Below, one piece after another: positions 12,529 through 19,584 of a DNA stretch of 64,000 nt. The stretch comes from Dehalococcoidia bacterium (GTDB taxonomy: Bacteria > Chloroflexota > Dehalococcoidia > Lucifugimonadales > UBA2985), in contig OZ252018.1 in the NCBI GenBank assembly GCA_965247535.1, forward strand, positions 885,046 to 949,045. The letters run 5' to 3'. The position numbers and the translations under genes are program-made. Within the stretch, counting starts at the first letter, position 1. Each line of letters begins with the position of its first letter. Below the pieces are notes generated by a model, which saw only the letters and a list, made by a program, of their open reading frames with translations, was not told the DNA's origin and did not search any database.

Positions 12529-12880
12529 GGATAGGGGCGGGCGCCCCTCATTTCCGCCGGGCCCTTGGTTTGGCAACAGCGAGCGGAAGAGCTGTCATTG
12601 CCTAATGGCTGCTCGGTTCTGGATCATCCAGCTCGCCTGGCACAGACTGGGATACTGGTTGGAACCCCCTGGGGTGGGGCAGCTTAGCCACCAGTGCTAA
12701 GGAGTCCATCTGAGCGCCGGTCAAGCGAGTGTGCATCGGAATCCACAACTAGTAGGGTTAAAGCACTGCCGGCGGCAGATCAACGGCCTATGATCGCGCG
12801 GGAACGAGTGAGGCCCAGACCGCACTTGACCGGAAGAGAATCGGCCAGAAGCTTGACGAGATTCTCGTCGTCTACCGGAG

Positions 12881-12909
12881 TCTAGAATAACCTTCTTGAG
12901 TGATATAAT
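12881..12909 (+). promoter_or_regulatory. candidate extended -10 promoter upstream of the ABC transporter genes
   Basis: TGaTATAAT (hexamer at 12904-12909) with a weak -35 TCTAGA 17 nt upstream. Confidence 0.3.
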
Positions 12910-13127
12910 CGCCGCGGTGAAAGCGACCCCATGAGAAGGCTGCTTCCAGAAGACTATCCCTCACAAGGATTCTTGCGAGCCGTCCTCGGAGGCCGCTCAG
13001 TTGGTTGCCCTGTTGCGAAGCTCACAGTCACGCGGGTGACTCACAACTCCCCGCTGGTGAGTACCGAACCATCGGGCCACGAGCCTCAATCCCTTTACAT
13101 GCAAAGTAGTTTGTCTGGAAGTGCCGA

Positions 13128-14303
13128 ATGACCATGCTTCGCAACCTGACGAGGCGGAAACTGCGCACCGCGCTGACCATCGGCGGAATTGCTGTTGGGA
13201 TGTGGGCACTTGTGGTAATGGCGGCAATGGCCAACAAGCTAAGCGCCCTAGTTGAAGGCGGCGCCACGTACTTTGAGGACAAGGTCTTGGTTAGCGACGA
13301 GTCGAACACCGCCTTCTCAGTAGGAAACACACCTCTGCCCATAACCATCGTCCAACAGATCGAACGGGTGCCGGGCGTGGCCGTCGCAGTGCCACGCGTA
13401 CAACTGCTCATGAACCCTGACGACCCGAGCTATACGTTCCAACGGCCAGCCACTGTCGTGGGGTACAACACAGGGGCTGATCAAGGGCATGAAACGTTCC
13501 CTTTGGAGATTGCACAGGGGCGGGCTCCGTCGGCGGAAGACGAGGGTCAGAGGGTGGCGTTCCTCGGCTCAGAACTAGCCGCAGAGTTCGACAAGGGAGT
13601 GGGGGACACCGTCCGAATACGCGGGAGTGAGTTCACGGTCATCGGCGTGGGACAGACAACGTTGACGTCCTTCGACAAATCTCTAGTAGTCCCTCTCACG
13701 GCCGGACAGGAGATACTGGCGAAAAAGACGCCAGTGCTGGCCGGGGGAGGCTTGGAGCCCGGTCAGTTGACATCCATCTTTGTGGTGTACCCTGAGGATG
13801 GGGTGAACACCGTCTCTCTAGCGGAACAGATAGAAGAGAACATTCCGGGTGTGCGGGCCGACACCAACATCGACTATGGCGATCAGTTCCGGTCGTCACT
13901 GGCGATTTTCAACGGAATTGTCCTGAGTGTGGCGCTGATCAGTGTGCTGGTCGGCGGTCTGACCGCCTTCAATACGATGACAATGAGCGTAACGGAACGT
14001 GTTCGAGAAATTGGTATCAAGCGCGCTATCGGGGCCTCACAAGGCCGGATCATGCGGGAGATGCTGTCAGAAGCAGCTGTCGTTGGCCTGGTAGGTGGCA
14101 TTCTCGGGGTGACGGGGGGAGCCGTTTTCGTTTACGGAGCCAACCAGATCGGTGAAGCTTCAGGGACAGTGATATTTCTGCTGACTCCAGGAATCGCCGT
14201 CTTCGCCGTAGGCTTTTCCACAATACTCGGGTCTGTAGCTGGAGTGGTGCCGGCATGGAAGGCCTCAGGCTTGGACCCAATTGAGGCGCTGAGGTATGGA
14301 TAA
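13128..14303 (+). CDS. ABC transporter permease, FtsX/MacB-type
   Basis: The N-terminus 'LRNLTRRKLRTALTIGGIAVG' forms TM1. A ~250-aa extracytoplasmic domain follows, then a C-terminal FtsX block 'ERVREIGIKRAIGASQGRIM' and three TM segments. Confidence 0.85.
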   Translation: MTMLRNLTRRKLRTALTIGGIAVGMWALVVMAAMANKLSALVEGGATYFEDKVLVSDESNTAFSVGNTPLPITIVQQIERVPGVAVAVPRVQLLMNPDDPSYTFQRPATVVGYNTGADQGHETFPLEIAQGRAPSAEDEGQRVAFLGSELAAEFDKGVGDTVRIRGSEFTVIGVGQTTLTSFDKSLVVPLTAGQEILAKKTPVLAGGGLEPGQLTSIFVVYPEDGVNTVSLAEQIEENIPGVRADTNIDYGDQFRSSLAIFNGIVLSVALISVLVGGLTAFNTMTMSVTERVREIGIKRAIGASQGRIMREMLSEAAVVGLVGGILGVTGGAVFVYGANQIGEASGTVIFLLTPGIAVFAVGFSTILGSVAGVVPAWKASGLDPIEALRYG

Positions 14304-14312
14304 AGGCGAGGC

Positions 14313-15005
14313 ATGGTTCTCCTCATAGCCCGAAACCTCCGCAAGACCTACCGCGTCAGTCGGCACAATGTGGTGCAGGCTTTACGGGGAGTGGATGTGA
14401 CAGTTGACGCTGGGGAAATGCTGGCGATCATGGGACCGTCAGGATCGGGCAAAAGCACCCTGATGCACATCCTGGGCCTTCTGCAATTGCCCGATGAAGA
14501 TACCGACTGTCCCCCGAGCCTGCTGCTCGACGTTATGGACGTGAGTAAGCTGCCGGACCGAGTGCGAACAAGGATACGAGCGGAACGGATAGGATTTGTT
14601 TTCCAGGCTTTCAATCTTGTTCCCTCACTAACGGCCGCGGAAAATGTTGCGCTACCAGCCGAGTATGCGGGTCAGCGGCGCTCAGCAGCTCGCTTAGCCG
14701 CCGCGGAGGCACTGAAAGCGGTGGGCATGGATAGCCGGGCGGGACATCGTCCCTCGGAGCTATCCGGCGGAGAACAGCAACGAGTCGCCATCGCCCGAGC
14801 GTTGGTGACCCGGCCGACGCTCCTGCTGGCAGACGAACCAACCGGCAACCTGGACACGGACAGTACAGAGGATCTTCTGGAAGTCCTGCGTGGCTACAAC
14901 CTTGAGAGGCAGCAGACTATGGTCTTAGTCACGCACGACCCCCGAGTGGGCGACGCCTGTCAGCGGGTGCTAACGATGCGGGATGGGGTCCTGGAGAAAG
15001 GGTAG
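14313..15005 (+). CDS. ABC transporter ATP-binding protein (MacB/LolD-like)
   Basis: Walker A 'GPSGSGKST', signature '[15 protein letters not shown]' and Walker B '[12 protein letters not shown]' are all present. Confidence 0.9.
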
Positions 15006-15143
15006 ATCCAGCAACTGGCGAGGCGCAGCTTGCCTTGCGAGACTGGACAGTCCGACTCTCGGTTTATCTTCGTCGGCTTTCCCCACGCAAGCGCTCTAGG
15101 CACGGCAACGCCTCTGCAGCTAACCCGAGCCTCCTGCTGTTCT

Positions 15144-15380
15144 ACCCCCTTTCTCTTCTTGACGACCCTGTTCCTGCCCCAGGAAGCAATGACGGACTGG
15201 CTGTCGACCGTGGCCGATTACAATCCGGTAACGTACCAGCTGGAAGCGATTCGGTCGCGAATAACCGTCGCCTGGGAGCCGGAGGTTCTGCTGATGGGTA
15301 TCGGGGTAGTGCTAATCGTCGGCGTGTCAGGCATGGGCCTGACGTTTGCAGCTCTAAAGGGACGCGCCACGAGTAGCTAG
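15144..15380 (+). pseudogene. C-terminal fragment of an ABC-2 type transporter permease
   Basis: 'FLPQEAMTDWLSTVADYNPVTYQLEAIR' plus a last TM segment matches the conserved ABC-2 C-terminus. No corresponding N-terminal ~200 aa is present. Confidence 0.5.
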
Positions 15381-16090
15381 CAGCCCAGCTTGCTCGCAAG
15401 TTCCTCGATGTCCGTGGCGTTAACATCGAAATCTGCTTCCGGAGCTACGTCCACATCAACGCTCGGCCCGAACTCGTGGGGCCTGGCAACGAATGCAGCC
15501 CTGAGGCCCACCGCCTGCGCCGACCTCAAATCACCCTTGTGGGCCGCCACCATCATGACCTCCTCCGGAAGCAGGCCCAAGAGTTCCGCTGCTCCCAGGT
15601 AGGTCTCCGGGTCCGGCTTGTAGCGCCTCATCAGCTCAGCGGAGAGGATGCAGTCCCAGAGCAGGCCCGCGTGCTTGGCCATGTTGGTGAGCAAGGCCAC
15701 GTTGCCATTGGAAAGGGTGGCTACAATGAAGCGTTGGCGCAAGCGGGTCAGGCCGGCCACGGAGTCCGGCCACGGCGCGAGCCTGTGCCACACCCGGTTC
15801 CAGTAGTCCTTCTCGTCTTCACTGAGCCCCGTGATGCCGAAGTCGTCAAGAAGGTCATCGAGGATCATGCGATGCAGCACGTCAATCTTGGTCCAAGGCA
15901 GCTCCCCGTTCCGCACCCGGGCCATTGCAGGCGCGTAGCCGGCCCGCCACCTGTCGGCGAACTCAGCCCAGTCGACGTCGATCCCCCTGGCCCTGCCCAA
16001 CTGCTCGCCCTCGCGGATGATGCTGCCGCGCCAGTCGACCACGGTCCCAAATACATCAAAGGTGAGGGCCTTGACACCCGATAGGTTCAC
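15377..16090 (-). CDS. haloacid dehalogenase, type II (HAD superfamily)
   Basis: 'ALTFDVFGTVVDW' is HAD motif I with the DVFGT pattern of L-2-haloacid dehalogenases. Also 'ATLSNGN' and 'YKPDPETY'. GTG start with a TAGGAGAC SD. Confidence 0.8.
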   Translation of the reverse strand: MNLSGVKALTFDVFGTVVDWRGSIIREGEQLGRARGIDVDWAEFADRWRAGYAPAMARVRNGELPWTKIDVLHRMILDDLLDDFGITGLSEDEKDYWNRVWHRLAPWPDSVAGLTRLRQRFIVATLSNGNVALLTNMAKHAGLLWDCILSAELMRRYKPDPETYLGAAELLGLLPEEVMMVAAHKGDLRSAQAVGLRAAFVARPHEFGPSVDVDVAPEADFDVNATDIEELASKLGC

Positions 16091-16142
16091 GGAAGTCTCC
16101 TAAGCCAGTGTCGCCTCAACGCTGAGCACCTCTACCGCCCCC

Positions 16143-16238
16143 TCACACGCCGGAAGCGCTCAGCTGCTCCTTGAGCAACTGTACCGCGGCTTCGATGCCG
16201 TCGGGGTGGTCGAAGACGGCCGTGCCTGCCACCACCAT
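16143..16238 (-). pseudogene. displaced relic of the rpe 3' end (direct repeat of 17197-17292)
   Basis: It encodes 'VVAGTAVFDHPDGIEAAVQLLKEQLSASGV*', against the rpe C-terminus 'VVAGSAVFDHPDGIEAAVRLLKERLGASGE*'. Ungapped identity is 85/96 nt, with a 40-nt perfect core (16183-16222 = 17237-17276). Confidence 0.85.
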
Positions 16239-16239
16239 G

Positions 16240-16440
16240 CTATTTGGCACGTTGGGCTATCAACGCCCGAACAGCTGGCACTAGTTCTCTGGGTACCTCC
16301 ATGACAACCTGCGTGGAGTCCTCGAAGGTGGCCTCGTCCTCTGCAACGGCTTCTTCCTCGGTCAGCGAATTGTAGTGCTGGAGGACCAGTTGAACGCGGT
16401 TCTCGTCCCACCCGGGCGGGAAGTTGGATTTGTTCTTCAT
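16240..16440 (-). CDS. putative antitoxin (small acidic protein, unassigned family)
   Basis: 66 aa: 'MKNKSNFPPGWDENRVQLVLQHYNSLTEEEAVAEDEATFED..EVPRELVPAVRALIAQ'. Its ATG overlaps the TGA of the upstream toxin-like ORF (ATGA). Confidence 0.5.
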   Translation of the reverse strand: MKNKSNFPPGWDENRVQLVLQHYNSLTEEEAVAEDEATFEDSTQVVMEVPRELVPAVRALIAQRAK

Positions 16441-16715
16441 CTTCCTCTCCTCCTCATTCGCCTTCGAAAGGCGGCGAGTGGTGTTCCTCTCAACTCGTAC
16501 GCTGTGATCACGAAGACCTGGTCGGGCACTGGATCTGGCACATAGATGACTCGGAGCAAGCACCCGTTGGAGGTCCGTCCCATGGCAACTCGTGATCCTT
16601 CTCGGCCGGGCCGGTCCTCGCTCGGAGACGCCATGACATCCTGAACTTCACCCTCCGTTATCCCGTGGGTCAGAATGTGAGCTAGGCCCGTTTCCTGGTC
16701 AATGTAGAACCTAAC
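16437..16715 (-). CDS. BrnT-like (DUF497-like) toxin candidate lacking a canonical start codon
   Basis: '(V)RFYIDQETGLAHILTHGITEGEVQDV...GRTSNGCLLRVIYVPD..VFVITAYEL' has the BrnT-type layout. A GAGAGGGTGAG SD lies 7-8 nt upstream of a GTT codon at the expected start, and an in-frame TGA lies 12 nt further up. Confidence 0.45.
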   Translation of the reverse strand, partial: VRFYIDQETGLAHILTHGITEGEVQDVMASPSEDRPGREGSRVAMGRTSNGCLLRVIYVPDPVPDQVFVITAYELRGTPLAAFRRRMRRRGR

Positions 16716-17196
16716 GTTTACGGCTCACCCTCTCTGCGCTCATCGAGGTGAAAGACTCCCCGGAATTAGCTTACGCTCTTAACCGTTCAACTTCCAGAAT
16801 TGGAGCCCGTGCTCAGAATGACGTTCTTTAGACTATCCTTGGCATACTTGTACAGTGCTTCCGGGATACGTGCACCCTACAGGGACGGAAGTGTCCCCAC
16901 AGTCTCCCTGCCCCGCACTACGTTTCCCGGGTTGATCAGATGTCCTATGGCCCCTCGGGTCGTCCTTGCCGCTCGGTGGTCCCACCCTGTCACTCTTGTC
17001 TCAGTATACCACCTGGCCTGAACATCGGCGCTGCTAGTGGGGCTACATGTCCGGGGTCTTGCGATGGGACCCGCAATCGTAGTAACTGATGAAGGCTGCG
17101 ATGGTACTACGCGCTTTAGAGTTACCCAGTAGACGGCGTAGCTAAACCACTAGAAGAGCGGTGCAAGGAGCGTGAACGCAGTCCTCTCCCGCTGGC

Positions 17197-17871
17197 TCAC
17201 TCGCCGGAAGCGCCCAGCCGCTCCTTGAGCAGCCGGACCGCGGCTTCGATGCCGTCGGGGTGGTCGAAGACGGCCGAGCCGGCAACCACTACCTGCGCGC
17301 CCGCATTCGCAACCAGCGGCGCCGTGTCGGCGTTGACGCCGCCGTCAACCTCCACGACGGCTTCTGAGCCCCGCTCGCGCAGCAGGTCGCGCATTCGCTC
17401 GATCTTCTGCGGGCTGGACGGGATGAACTTCTGGGCGGGCAGGCCGGGGTTCACCGACATCACCAGCACCTGGTCCAGCCACGGCAACGCCTCCTCGATG
17501 GCCATCACGGACGTGGCAGGGCTGATGGCCACGCCTGCGCGGGCTCCCCGCGAGCGAATGCGGTCGACGGTCCAGTGGAGTTGGATGCAGGCCTCGAAGT
17601 GGACCGTGATGATGTCCGCGCCCGCGTCCACGAACGAGTCCACGTGACGCTCCGGCTGCTCCACCATCATGTGGACGTCAAGCGGTAGGTGCGTCCACCG
17701 CCGGATGGCCTCGACTGTGCGAGGCCCCCAAGTAAGGGCCGGCACGAAGTGCCCGTCCATGATGTCAACGTGTATGAGATCAGCGCCTGCGCGCGTGATT
17801 TCCGCCACGTGCTCGCCCAGCCGGGCGAAGTCCGCAGACAGGATGGATGGCGCCAGCTTGACGTCAGCCAC
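17197..17871 (-). CDS. rpe: ribulose-phosphate 3-epimerase
   Basis: 'KLAPSILSADFARLGEHV', 'IHVDIMDGHFVP' and 'VMSVNPG' are classic RPE motifs. A GTG start at 17871 is preferred over the longer track ORF (17913). Confidence 0.9.
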   Translation of the reverse strand: MADVKLAPSILSADFARLGEHVAEITRAGADLIHVDIMDGHFVPALTWGPRTVEAIRRWTHLPLDVHMMVEQPERHVDSFVDAGADIITVHFEACIQLHWTVDRIRSRGARAGVAISPATSVMAIEEALPWLDQVLVMSVNPGLPAQKFIPSSPQKIERMRDLLRERGSEAVVEVDGGVNADTAPLVANAGAQVVVAGSAVFDHPDGIEAAVRLLKERLGASGE

Positions 17872-18238
17872 CGCGCGCCTCGATGTCGGTGACCCAGCGC
17901 CGGAAGCCCACAAGCTTGTCGAACGACTCCGCCGACGCCCCGGCAGTCTCCACGGTCTCCGGTCCGAAGCCCCACTCAGACCCCCATCTCATCACGTAGT
18001 CCTCCAAGGTCAAAAGGCCAAGATACTGCTTCACAGCCTCCTCCATCGCAGAAACAGCGCGGGAGCTCGCAATAAGCTCCTGGCAAACGGCCAGCAGTTC
18101 CGGGTGGGAGCCGCCAAGCGTCGCCCGCTTGAACCCAAGGGAGGGATAACCCAGGCCGGTGTTGTTCTCAATCACGCTCCGCACCGCGTTCTGCAGGCTC
18201 CCGGGGTTGGCAATGGTCATCTGAGCTCGCACGATCAC
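17864..18238 (-). CDS. hypothetical protein (124 aa), coupled to both argH and rpe
   Basis: The ORF start overlaps the argH stop (ATGA), and its stop overlaps the rpe GTG start. I recognise no motif. Confidence 0.45.
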   Translation of the reverse strand: MIVRAQMTIANPGSLQNAVRSVIENNTGLGYPSLGFKRATLGGSHPELLAVCQELIASSRAVSAMEEAVKQYLGLLTLEDYVMRWGSEWGFGPETVETAGASAESFDKLVGFRRWVTDIEARGG

Positions 18239-19584
18239 AGACCTGGCTCCAGCAGGCGGCTTGCTTCACTGAGCGCCTCCTCAACCCGCCGAGGCGCCGT
18301 GCCCCCGGGCACATCCCGGCCGGCAACGGAGCTCTCCGCGCTGATCTCGTACACGTCCTCTTCGAAGCGGGGAGAGAAGCTGCGGTAGTCTTCCAGCTCC
18401 AGCTCCGAGAGGCTAACGCCTTGGGACTCCGCGTGGCGCACCAGGTCCGCGACGATTCCGTGGGCCGAGCGGAACGGCTCGCTCTTCCTCACCAGGTAGT
18501 CAGCCAGGTCCGTGGCCAGCATCGAGGCGTCTCCCGCCGCCTCACGCATCCGCTCGGAGCGGACCTCCATCGTGGCGACCATTCCGGCGAAAACCGATAG
18601 CGTGCCGAGAAGCGTGTCCACGGTGTCGAAGAAGCCCTGCTTGTCCTCCTGCAGGTCGCGGTTGTAGGCAAGGGGCAGTCCCTTGAGCATGGTGAGCGCA
18701 CCCATCAGATTGCCGTAGACGCGGCCCGTCTTGCCGCGGGCCAGCTCGGCCACGTCCGGGTTGCGCTTCTGCGGCATTATGCTGCTGCCGGAGGTGTAGT
18801 CGTCGCCCAGCCGCACGAAGCCGAACTCCTGCGAGGACCACACCACAAGCTCCTCGGCCAGGCGGGAGAGATGGGCCATGCACAGGGCGGCGTTGGAGTG
18901 GTACTCCACCAGAAAGTCACGGTCGGAGACGGCGTCGATGCTGTTCGCGCTGAGGCGGCTGAAGCCGAGCTCCCTAGCCACGAGGTCGCGGTCGATGGAG
19001 TAGGGGACGCCGGCGAGCGCGCCGCTACCCAACGGGAGCACGTCGGTCCTCCGCAGGCAATCGGCGAAGCGTTCGCGGTCGCGCTGCAGCATGTGGAAGT
19101 AGGCCAGCATGTGGTGCGCAAAGAGCACCGGCTGGGCGCGCTGCAGATGGGTGTAGCCGGGCATGATGACGCCTTGGTGGGCCCGCGCAACCGATAGCAG
19201 GGTCTCCTGGAGCGCCCTGAGCTTGCCGATGGTCTCCTGGGTGACCTCTTTGCAGTACAGGCGAATGTCAGTGGCCACCTGGTCGTTGCGGGAGCGGGCC
19301 GTGTGCAGCCGCCCCGCGGCGTCGCCGATCTTCTCGAAGAGGCGCGCCTCCACGTTCATGTGGATGTCCTCCAGCTCCTCTTTCCAGGGGAAATCGCCGT
19401 TCTCGATCTCCTGCAGAATGCTCTGGAGGCCAGAGCAGATTAGTTGCGAGTCATCTTCCGAGATGATGCCCTGGGCGGACAGCATCCGCGCATGGGCCAC
19501 CGAAGCCGCCACGTCCTGCCGGTACAGGCGGCGATCGTAGCTCATGGAGGCGATGTAGGGCGGTATTGCGTCCCTGTCTTGCAT
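18235..19584 (-). CDS. argH: argininosuccinate lyase
   Basis: The fumarate-lyase signature 'GSSIMPQKRNPD' is present, with the ArgH-like 'SYDRRLYRQDVAASVAHARML'. Confidence 0.9.
   Translation of the reverse strand: MQDRDAIPPYIASMSYDRRLYRQDVAASVAHARMLSAQGIISEDDSQLICSGLQSILQEIENGDFPWKEELEDIHMNVEARLFEKIGDAAGRLHTARSRNDQVATDIRLYCKEVTQETIGKLRALQETLLSVARAHQGVIMPGYTHLQRAQPVLFAHHMLAYFHMLQRDRERFADCLRRTDVLPLGSGALAGVPYSIDRDLVARELGFSRLSANSIDAVSDRDFLVEYHSNAALCMAHLSRLAEELVVWSSQEFGFVRLGDDYTSGSSIMPQKRNPDVAELARGKTGRVYGNLMGALTMLKGLPLAYNRDLQEDKQGFFDTVDTLLGTLSVFAGMVATMEVRSERMREAAGDASMLATDLADYLVRKSEPFRSAHGIVADLVRHAESQGVSLSELELEDYRSFSPRFEEDVYEISAESSVAGRDVPGGTAPRRVEEALSEASRLLEPGL

Follow-up and report, generated by a model that had tools for sequence, protein, structure and literature searches.

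Small chromosomal insertions that carry no mobility gene of their own have been described for restriction-modification (RM) systems under the name of insertion with long target duplication (Nobusato et al. 2000, Gene 259:99; Furuta, Abe & Kobayashi 2010, NAR 38:2428, PMC2853133). They are recognised by repeats longer than 30 bp that are not multi-copy, by a single copy at the related empty site, by an insert of less than 20 kb, and by the absence of an integrase or transposase gene in or beside it (PMC2853133). The mechanism was left open, and a cycle of insertion, repeat-mediated amplification and release was proposed (PMC2853133). In the toxin-antitoxin reviews consulted this class of insertion is mentioned for RM systems only, not for type II pairs. 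The present work concerns a locus of this kind in a stretch of 64,000 nucleotides (the window) from a Dehalococcoidia bacterium (contig OZ252018.1, positions 885,046 to 949,045), where a predicted toxin-antitoxin pair stands between two copies of the 3' end of rpe, the gene for ribulose-phosphate 3-epimerase. The source genome, a single contig of 1.98 Mb, is called G000 below; other G numbers are genomes of relatives, and L numbers are individual toxin-antitoxin loci in relatives or in metagenome contigs.

The rpe locus is a real and well-preserved insertion scar of a known kind, in itself ordinary, which carries an unusually widespread toxin-antitoxin pair. It has repeats of 107-110 nt with 88% identity, present in two copies, a cargo of 947 nt and no recombinase gene near by, and the corresponding site of the related species G002 and G005 shows one rpe end. 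Like the described insertions, it is a small and presumably selfish or addictive unit without a mobility gene. Its repeats are unique in the genome and overlap a gene 3' end, as those of the class often do; the repeat length is variable, 46-423 bp in the papers and 107 nt at rpe. The differences are that the event at rpe is old, that its repeats are only 88% identical and apparently homogenised with the host copy, and that a sister cassette in the same genome, c1393, has repeats in which host and donor sequence form chimeras, so that they do not simply duplicate the target.

Islands with an integrase at gene 3' ends (tRNA, tmRNA and protein genes, for example those specific for ssrA in Dehalococcoides) resemble the locus in their surrogate end, displaced end and direct repeats. 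Such islands have their own tyrosine or serine integrase and one fixed target, whereas the rpe locus has no integrase and its cassette family is found at many targets. Campbell-type insertion-duplication is the single crossover of a circular DNA that carries a chromosomal gene fragment. It yields the order gene, arm, cargo, arm, in which both arms are of full length and form reciprocal chimeras; an arm that reaches the gene end leaves the gene intact, and recombination between the arms reverses the event. It is mainly a laboratory method and a habit of integrative plasmids, and a recombinase-less toxin-antitoxin circle that behaves in this way is here a proposal only. On balance, and with a confidence somewhat above even, we lean towards reading the rpe locus as a recombinase-less toxin-antitoxin cassette in the rpe 3' end, an insertion with long target duplication that most likely came about through homologous recombination of the host.

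The duplicated rpe end and its cargo

The features of the locus in window coordinates are the following.
17197-17913, minus strand: intact rpe (Pfam PF00834, E 7e-73, match across the full model)
17183-17292, minus strand: attached repeat copy, the functional rpe 3' end plus 14 nt, stop codon at 17197-17199
16725-17182: non-coding spacer of the cassette, about 460 nt
16437-16724, minus strand: toxin frame of 95 codons, DUF4258 family, predicted RelE/BrnT fold
16240-16440, minus strand: antitoxin gene, 66 aa (MKNKSNFPPGWDE...), its ATG overlapping the toxin stop codon (ATGA)
16129-16238, minus strand: orphan repeat copy, the final 32 rpe codons, TGA (16143-16145) and 14 nt downstream
16183-16222: exact 40-nt core in the orphan copy, partner at 17237-17276, coding for FDHPDGIEAAV
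15377-16090, minus strand: HAD-family hydrolase gene (Pfam PF00702, E 1.6e-16), the original downstream neighbour of rpe
17864-18238, minus strand: unclassified open reading frame (ORF) of 124 codons between argH and rpe
18235-19584, minus strand: argH

The gene order, all on the minus strand, is argH, unclassified ORF, rpe, an insert of 0.95 kb and the HAD-family hydrolase gene. A repeat search of the locus returned a single direct-repeat pair, 16129-16235 and 17183-17289, of 107 nt with 88% identity and a spacing of 1054, in which the copies differ at 13 of the 107 positions. An earlier note on this DNA had reported 85 of 96 identical nucleotides between 16143-16238 and 17197-17292 and a shared core of 40 nt; a direct recount gave the same values, and the 40 nt are the longest exact run between the copies. 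The 110-nt repeat segment occurs in exactly two copies in the whole genome, and because there are just two, the pair is neither a dispersed repeat nor a product of chance. As the note had also stated, both copies encode the Rpe C-terminus with a stop codon. The frame is kept on the minus strand down to a TGA (...VVVAGSAVFDHPDGIEAAVRLLKERLGASGE in the attached copy, MVVAGTAVFDHPDGIEAAVQLLKEQLSASGV in the orphan), and homology continues for 14 nt beyond the stop codon in each. The attached copy keeps rpe intact, as seen from the full-length PF00834 match, and the distal orphan indeed abuts the antitoxin, starting 1 nt past its stop codon (16240-16242). In annotation the orphan rpe tail is best given as a relic and not as a gene.

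The core codes for VFDHPDGIEAAV; no part of the rpe tail is better conserved across the genomes compared, and the FDHPDGIEAAV stretch is nearly invariant across members of the genus. On this comparison the core can be understood as the most conserved rpe codons, a gene-conversion tract, or both, and a special role in crossover would not be needed. The stop-codon end of the orphan (GTG TGA GG.GGCGGTAGAGG) matches that of the functional gene in the sister species G002, and the orphan of G000 has four transitions of its own.

The 947-nt cargo comprises the toxin frame, the antitoxin gene and the spacer, and nothing else. This agrees with the former description of a BrnT-like toxin and antitoxin pair with non-coding DNA and no integrase; no recombinase or integrase gene is present in the insert of G000 or in that of the relative G004. 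The toxin of G000 scored slightly under the cut-off of the Pfam family DUF4258 (PF14076; E 8e-5, 23.3 bits against 25), and the family was matched by 14 of 15 aligned toxin homologues (best E 3e-7). An AlphaFold2 (AF2) model built on the homologue alignment had a pLDDT of 93. In a Foldseek search against the Protein Data Bank (PDB) its top match was the RNase toxin BrnT (3u97, prob 1.0, TM 0.58/0.69, E 5e-3), followed by HigB2, RelE and YoeB. Going by the modelled fold, the toxin is presumably an RNase. The toxin gave no BrnT match in Pfam or NCBIfam and no match at all in NCBIfam, the antitoxin matched no Pfam or NCBIfam family and neither BrnA nor a ribbon-helix-helix model, and a sequence-profile search of the PDB returned no match. 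The pair is thus like BrnT/BrnA and other type II modules of the RelE superfamily in the BrnT fold of its toxin and in a toxin gene that precedes and overlaps the antitoxin gene, while it differs from BrnT/BrnA in that its toxin would by sequence be placed in DUF4258 (PF14076) and its antitoxin in no recognisable family.

The signs of a type II toxin-antitoxin module, predicted from sequence, are the conserved pair, the overlapping genes and a ratio of nonsynonymous to synonymous divergence (dN/dS) of 0.11-0.17. The antitoxin lies directly downstream of the toxin in every order-level locus checked and in every metagenome locus listed. Toxicity, neutralisation and addiction are presumed. The codon at which homologues start (ATG, GTG or TTG) is GTA in G000 (16719-16721) and likewise in G004. 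Despite the GTA, the toxin frame is intact and under purifying selection (dN/dS 0.17 against G004), which suggests either that initiation is very weak and so keeps the toxin in check, or that translation starts in an unusual way.

The spacer is unique in the genome; only 142 nt of it align to G004, at 71%, and it is absent from the other loci of the toxin-antitoxin family. Rfam (gathering scores) and tRNA/tmRNA scans of the window returned nothing, and a promoter and terminator scan of 15900-17400 gave nothing above shuffles. A hidden gene or RNA in the spacer was considered and rejected, the segment being unique, barely conserved in G004 and missing from other family loci, and we read it as decayed DNA. 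On the other side of rpe, the ORF at 17864-18238 overlaps the longest rpe reading frame and had no Pfam or NCBIfam match.

The rpe site in related species

The genus comprised nine species genomes. The tree from the adjacent 6.6 kb is ((G000,G002),(G004,G005)),G003,G001, with an identity over the same 6.6 kb of 94.9% and 92.8% within the two pairs and about 87% between them. The search for empty sites in relatives, which the earlier note had proposed, found single rpe ends in both pairs. The states of the site are as follows.
G000: occupied
G004: also occupied; the insert is the same, the repeat pair is its own (104 nt, 93%), and the antitoxin-stop/orphan junction, TAGCATGGTGGT, is identical to that of G000
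G002 and G005: single rpe end with the HAD-family gene directly after it (empty site)
G001: rpe, solo antitoxin gene and HAD-family gene; toxin, spacer and orphan all missing
G003: rearranged

A mis-join or collapsed haplotypes might be suspected, because the genome is a metagenome-derived assembly. Such an assembly artefact is nevertheless hardly credible, as the copies differ at 13 of 107 positions, the same arrangement is found, 12-20% diverged, in the independent assembly of another species (G004), and G001 holds a derived state of it.

Between G000 and G004 the toxin is 88% identical in nucleotides (synonymous divergence, dS, 0.37; dN/dS 0.17), the antitoxin 87% (dS 0.53, dN/dS 0.11) and rpe 87.7% (dS 0.44, dN/dS 0.12). 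The antitoxin of G001 is more distant (dS 0.72), in line with its host. The cargo has thus co-diverged with the host along the host tree. Since toxin, antitoxin and rpe are equally diverged between G000 and G004, the insertion is old; since it is as old as the split of the host species, the empty sites are likelier to be secondary deletions than virgin attB sites. By this sequence comparison, the cassette was probably deleted precisely between the repeats in G002 and G005. A single insertion before the G000 and G004 lineages split gives the most economical history, followed by a precise loss in G002 and G005, which would result from crossover between the repeats, and a partial loss in G001. 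There the toxin, spacer and orphan would have been lost and the antitoxin alone kept. The endpoints of the upstream deletion in G001 (L008, G001:C1:1005321-1006052) fit a microhomology AGAGGA, and its solo antitoxin is best seen as a leftover after toxin loss.

The same sites could also be arranged in the opposite direction. If the empty sites of G002 and G005 were ancestral, G000 and G004 would have gained the cassette separately from occupied relatives within the genus, by the same class of mechanism. The orphan and the functional end of the sister species do have derived characters in common (GTG TGA in the G000 orphan and G002; GTATTC and GGTTC in the G004 orphan and G005), and the toxin family is horizontally mobile across phyla at 58-82% amino acid identity. 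Against this stand the divergence of toxin and antitoxin, which equals that of the hosts and follows the host tree including G001, the need for two or more gains that arrive at one and the same junction, in addition to the state in G001, and the ease of deletion between 107-nt repeats. Separate gains are therefore unlikely, although they deserve to be kept in mind, and the direction of change that we infer is loss and not gain.

The repeat copies group by host lineage and not by position. The attached copy of G000, the orphan of G000 and the single copy of G002 are 87-91% identical, and the two copies of G004 and the copy of G005 are 90% identical, while identities between the lineages are 76-85% (orphan to orphan 77%). 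Lineage-specific substitutions are found in both copies of a genome, CCCCGAC in G000 and GGCCTC, GAAGCG and CAG in G004. Both orphans are without indels, and the adjoining spacer has decayed almost past alignment. As the copies are alike by lineage and the duplication is old, the orphan has probably been corrected repeatedly against the functional copy by gene conversion; alternatively, the cassette would have cycled out of and into the site. Under the history of a single old insertion, gene conversion would have kept the two repeats alike after entry, and the crossover outcome of the same recombination would delete the cassette.

A further difference between the species lies downstream of the HAD-family gene. 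The block 12548-15346 of the window contains genes for an FtsX-type ABC permease (13128-14303) and an ABC ATPase (14313-15005); G002 has an unrelated segment of 520 nt in its place, and the block is absent there in G004, G005 and G001. It was considered as a repeat-bracketed insertion and rejected, since no flanking repeats were found, and it is a substitution-type polymorphism.

Cassettes at other genes and other members of the toxin-antitoxin family

When the G000 genome was compared with itself, at least 10 more cassettes, 0.4-3 kb long, were found between repeats of 54-408 nt that derive from adjacent gene ends. The cassettes have a cargo G+C below that of the genome. Their positions on G000:C1 include the following.
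1897694-1898964; 751172-753775; 1442624-1445472; 418785-422165; 653939-655279
513311-513816; 356547-357435; 1139516-1141430; 1393386-1395028

The cargo includes a HicA-like/HicB pair (PF05534), a PaREP1/HEPN-like protein with a small partner, a methyltransferase-like protein of 947 aa with an NPPF motif, DUF418, CrtC-like and DUF3267-like proteins, and a DUF35-like plus thiolase-like pair, the last read from the sequence alone, which stands behind a 323-nt copy of the carB end. The segment 751172-753775 is an array of two successive cassettes on three copies of the rsmI end. The cargo ends of 14 cassettes of G000 had neither a terminal motif in common nor inverted repeats, which argues against a transposase-type mechanism. 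The genus was also searched with reconstructed empty-site sequences. Contiguous single-copy empty sites were present in G002 for c653 (repeat of 164 nt, 99%), c418 (183 nt, 96%) and c1393 (181 nt, 81%), and for c513 the contiguous single-copy sequence was found in four other species. The 211-nt repeat of the HicAB cassette (G000:C1:1897694-1897904) holds short REP-like elements with dozens of copies in all members of the genus, and some brackets may be built from dispersed repeats and not from gene ends.

The toxin of the rpe locus was found in 35 of 401 genomes and 17 of 146 genera of the order, and within the taxonomic family of G000 in G000 and G004 only. More than 560 relatives were found in a metagenome scan and more than 560 in a scan of species genomes, with 58-82% amino acid identity, in Dehalococcoidia, Binatia, Nitrospirota, Acidobacteriota, Gamma- and Deltaproteobacteria, Cyanobacteria and the archaeal Methanoperedens. 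Such a level of identity across phyla (L185-L264) is unusually high conservation and implies frequent recent horizontal transfer. In all, roughly 1,150 loci of the family were detected. The pair is, by its distribution, a strongly horizontally mobile module. Members of the family bracketed by repeats were found at unrelated genes.
G380: repeat of 70 nt, 91%, 3' end of a short-chain dehydrogenase/reductase (SDR) gene
G311: repeat of 127 nt, 95%, 3' end of a convergent enolase-superfamily gene
L172: repeat of 143 nt, 3' end of the upstream gene
L120: repeat of 90 nt, 3' end of the upstream gene
L250: repeat of 116 nt, 3' end of a HEAT-repeat gene
L248: repeat of 79-84 nt, end of an sdhA-like gene
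L185: repeat of 102 nt, 5' region of hsdR

With both repeat copies required to lie within 1.5 kb, bracketing by repeats of 45-190 nt was seen at about 6 of 33 loci in the order, about 12 of 52 from metagenomes and 14 of 63 from species genomes (about 20%). The same pipeline reported 10 of 400 random 480-nt segments (2.5%), these control segments coming from G000 alone. The architecture is not specific to rpe, and as the target genes across the family are unrelated, there is no fixed att site. Empty sites for the cassettes of G311 and G380 could not be resolved, the relatives being too distant or not syntenic.

Two short metagenome contigs with the pair, L151 (Ga0114931_10162799) and L171 (Ga0105099_10056326), of 1.8 and 2.1 kb, start and finish in an identical repeat of 123 or 109 nt around the cassette. 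An assembler would give such contigs from repeat-bracketed cassettes, as assembly loops, or from genuine small circles. In G035 (L070, 5839-9735) and G255 (L062), which belong to another genus, the pair immediately precedes a gene of about 1045 aa which, by its sequence alone, resembles a type IIG RM gene. In G035 an orphan copy of the 3' end of this gene is present upstream of the toxin, linking the toxin-antitoxin pair, an RM gene and long repeats. The two genomes were not counted as clean bracketed examples, as their repeats involve the adjacent RM gene.

Recombination route and its alternatives

The clearest trace of how such a cassette enters comes from c1393, the DUF418 cassette, whose repeats lie at G000:C1:1393386-1393566 and 1394849-1395028. 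In the chimera test each site that differs between the repeat copies was labelled by the copy matching the empty-site relative, and a permutation p was computed. For c1393 against G002 the labels were 111111211111111111111111212121222221 (p = 0.003): the left copy is host-like at its left, the right copy at its right, and the cargo-facing parts of both are foreign. This is the reciprocal host/foreign chimera that one crossover with a diverged incoming copy of the target, about 80% identical, leaves. Incoming DNA at c1393 therefore carried its own target copy, and the pattern is not that of a fill-in duplication. The cassette c418 showed the same order (12222) with too few sites. At rpe the pattern is a weak trend, the labels being 112112222122112 for G000 against G002 (p = 0.21) and 1122211212 for G004 against G005 (p = 0.48). 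Its best hint there lies at the stop codon, where the orphan is host-like but the attached copy is not. A chimera pattern at rpe would be blurred by age, by drift of the orphan and by gene conversion.

A true duplication of the target at insertion is the reading implied by the name of the class in the literature (PMC2853133). In that case illegitimate joining at two points about 110 nt apart, by staggered breaks with fill-in, microhomology-mediated end joining or template switching, would have left both repeats initially as identical host sequence. Repeat lengths that vary (45-400 nt) and cargo ends without a common motif are what repair or replication accidents leave. When an origin of both rpe copies from the target was tested, they proved host-lineage-like over their whole length, yet mosaic. 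However, halves of the c1393 repeat are clearly not host-derived, the identical cargo/repeat junction in G000 and G004 requires a single origin anyway, and the attached copy departs from the rpe end of the sister species precisely beside the cargo. We consider such a duplication improbable, though not negligible.

The earlier note had proposed site-specific integration into the gene 3' end, and part of this stands: rpe was left intact by an insertion that displaced its former end. Its further view, of attL/attR sites with a special core, is not borne out, given the lack of a fixed target and the chimera values of p = 0.21 and 0.48 at rpe. Stated in full, a tyrosine or serine integrase would have joined an attP that mimics the rpe end with an attB in rpe inside the 40-nt core, and the integrase would have been lost later or the cassette mobilised in trans, so that the insert is a stripped remnant of an integrative element. 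The architecture fits, since the gene is intact with a surrogate end, its former end is displaced and the direct repeats share a core without differences; empty sites exist, the distal end of the orphan is host-like whereas that of the attached copy is not, and the reciprocal chimeras of c1393, attL/attR-like with arms about 80% identical, would be easier for a site-specific enzyme than for RecA. On the other hand, the inserts of G000 and G004 have no integrase and a cargo of 947 nt leaves no room for one. The recombinase genes of G000 are two of the tyrosine type (686 and 1,328 kb) and two of the serine type, one intact (1,820 kb) and one interrupted by a stop codon; the latter, 27 kb from the rpe locus, is the nearest to the insert. 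The at least 10 other cassettes at different genes thus outnumber the two tyrosine and one intact serine recombinase genes. Members of the same toxin-antitoxin family sit at unrelated targets between repeats of 45-190 nt, the core falls on the best conserved codons of rpe, and the chimera test at rpe is not significant. The note had proposed looking for the core in larger elements elsewhere; it is present in the genus at rpe ends only, and a degenerate 32-nt pattern had 0 matches in metagenome contigs. With many targets, varied repeat lengths and too few recombinases, a remnant or minimal form of an integrative element has little to recommend it and is the less probable for each of these points.

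To return to a recombinase-less cassette moved by the host, entry would have brought a second end of the target gene along with the cassette, so that rpe stayed intact and the displaced end became the relic. Two routes may be envisaged: a circular cassette with a homology arm would have entered by a Campbell-type single crossover, or an occupied relative would have passed on its allele. An integrase of the cassette itself would not be involved in either, and addiction to the pair would disfavour loss. Several points weigh against this reading. Firstly, the reciprocal-chimera pattern is non-significant at rpe, and the route is extrapolated from another cassette. Secondly, homologous recombination is inefficient between arms of 75-90% identity, which are poor substrates for RecA, and spread of the Campbell type leaves the origin of the first repeat-plus-cassette unit unexplained. 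Moreover, deletion and a never-occupied site both predict the same single copy in G002 and G005. Finally, the toxin is without a canonical start codon (GTA), so its addictive effect is presumed and unproven.

A more far-reaching version is doubtful, though not idle. The toxin-antitoxin family might be a self-sufficient mobile unit without a recombinase, which would excise as a small circle between its repeats, carry a hybrid gene-end arm, re-enter related genomes by a single homologous crossover that rebuilds the gene end, and be retained by addiction. If this were true, the other repeat-bracketed cassettes (HicAB, PaREP1, methyltransferase-like and metabolic genes) would share the route. There would then be a mechanism for the 25-year-old puzzle of insertion with long target duplication, and a general answer to how chromosomal toxin-antitoxin pairs move.

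For the movement of chromosomal toxin-antitoxin pairs and of small defence or addiction modules without a transposase or integrase, one route has been described and its mechanism is not established. The rpe locus is an entry point to this unsolved insertion mechanism, being a clean toxin-antitoxin case in which one genus shows the site occupied, empty and decayed, and c1393 points to a homology-guided entry rather than a staggered cut. About one fifth of the loci of the family are still bracketed by repeats, which offers hundreds of natural events for work on the mechanism.

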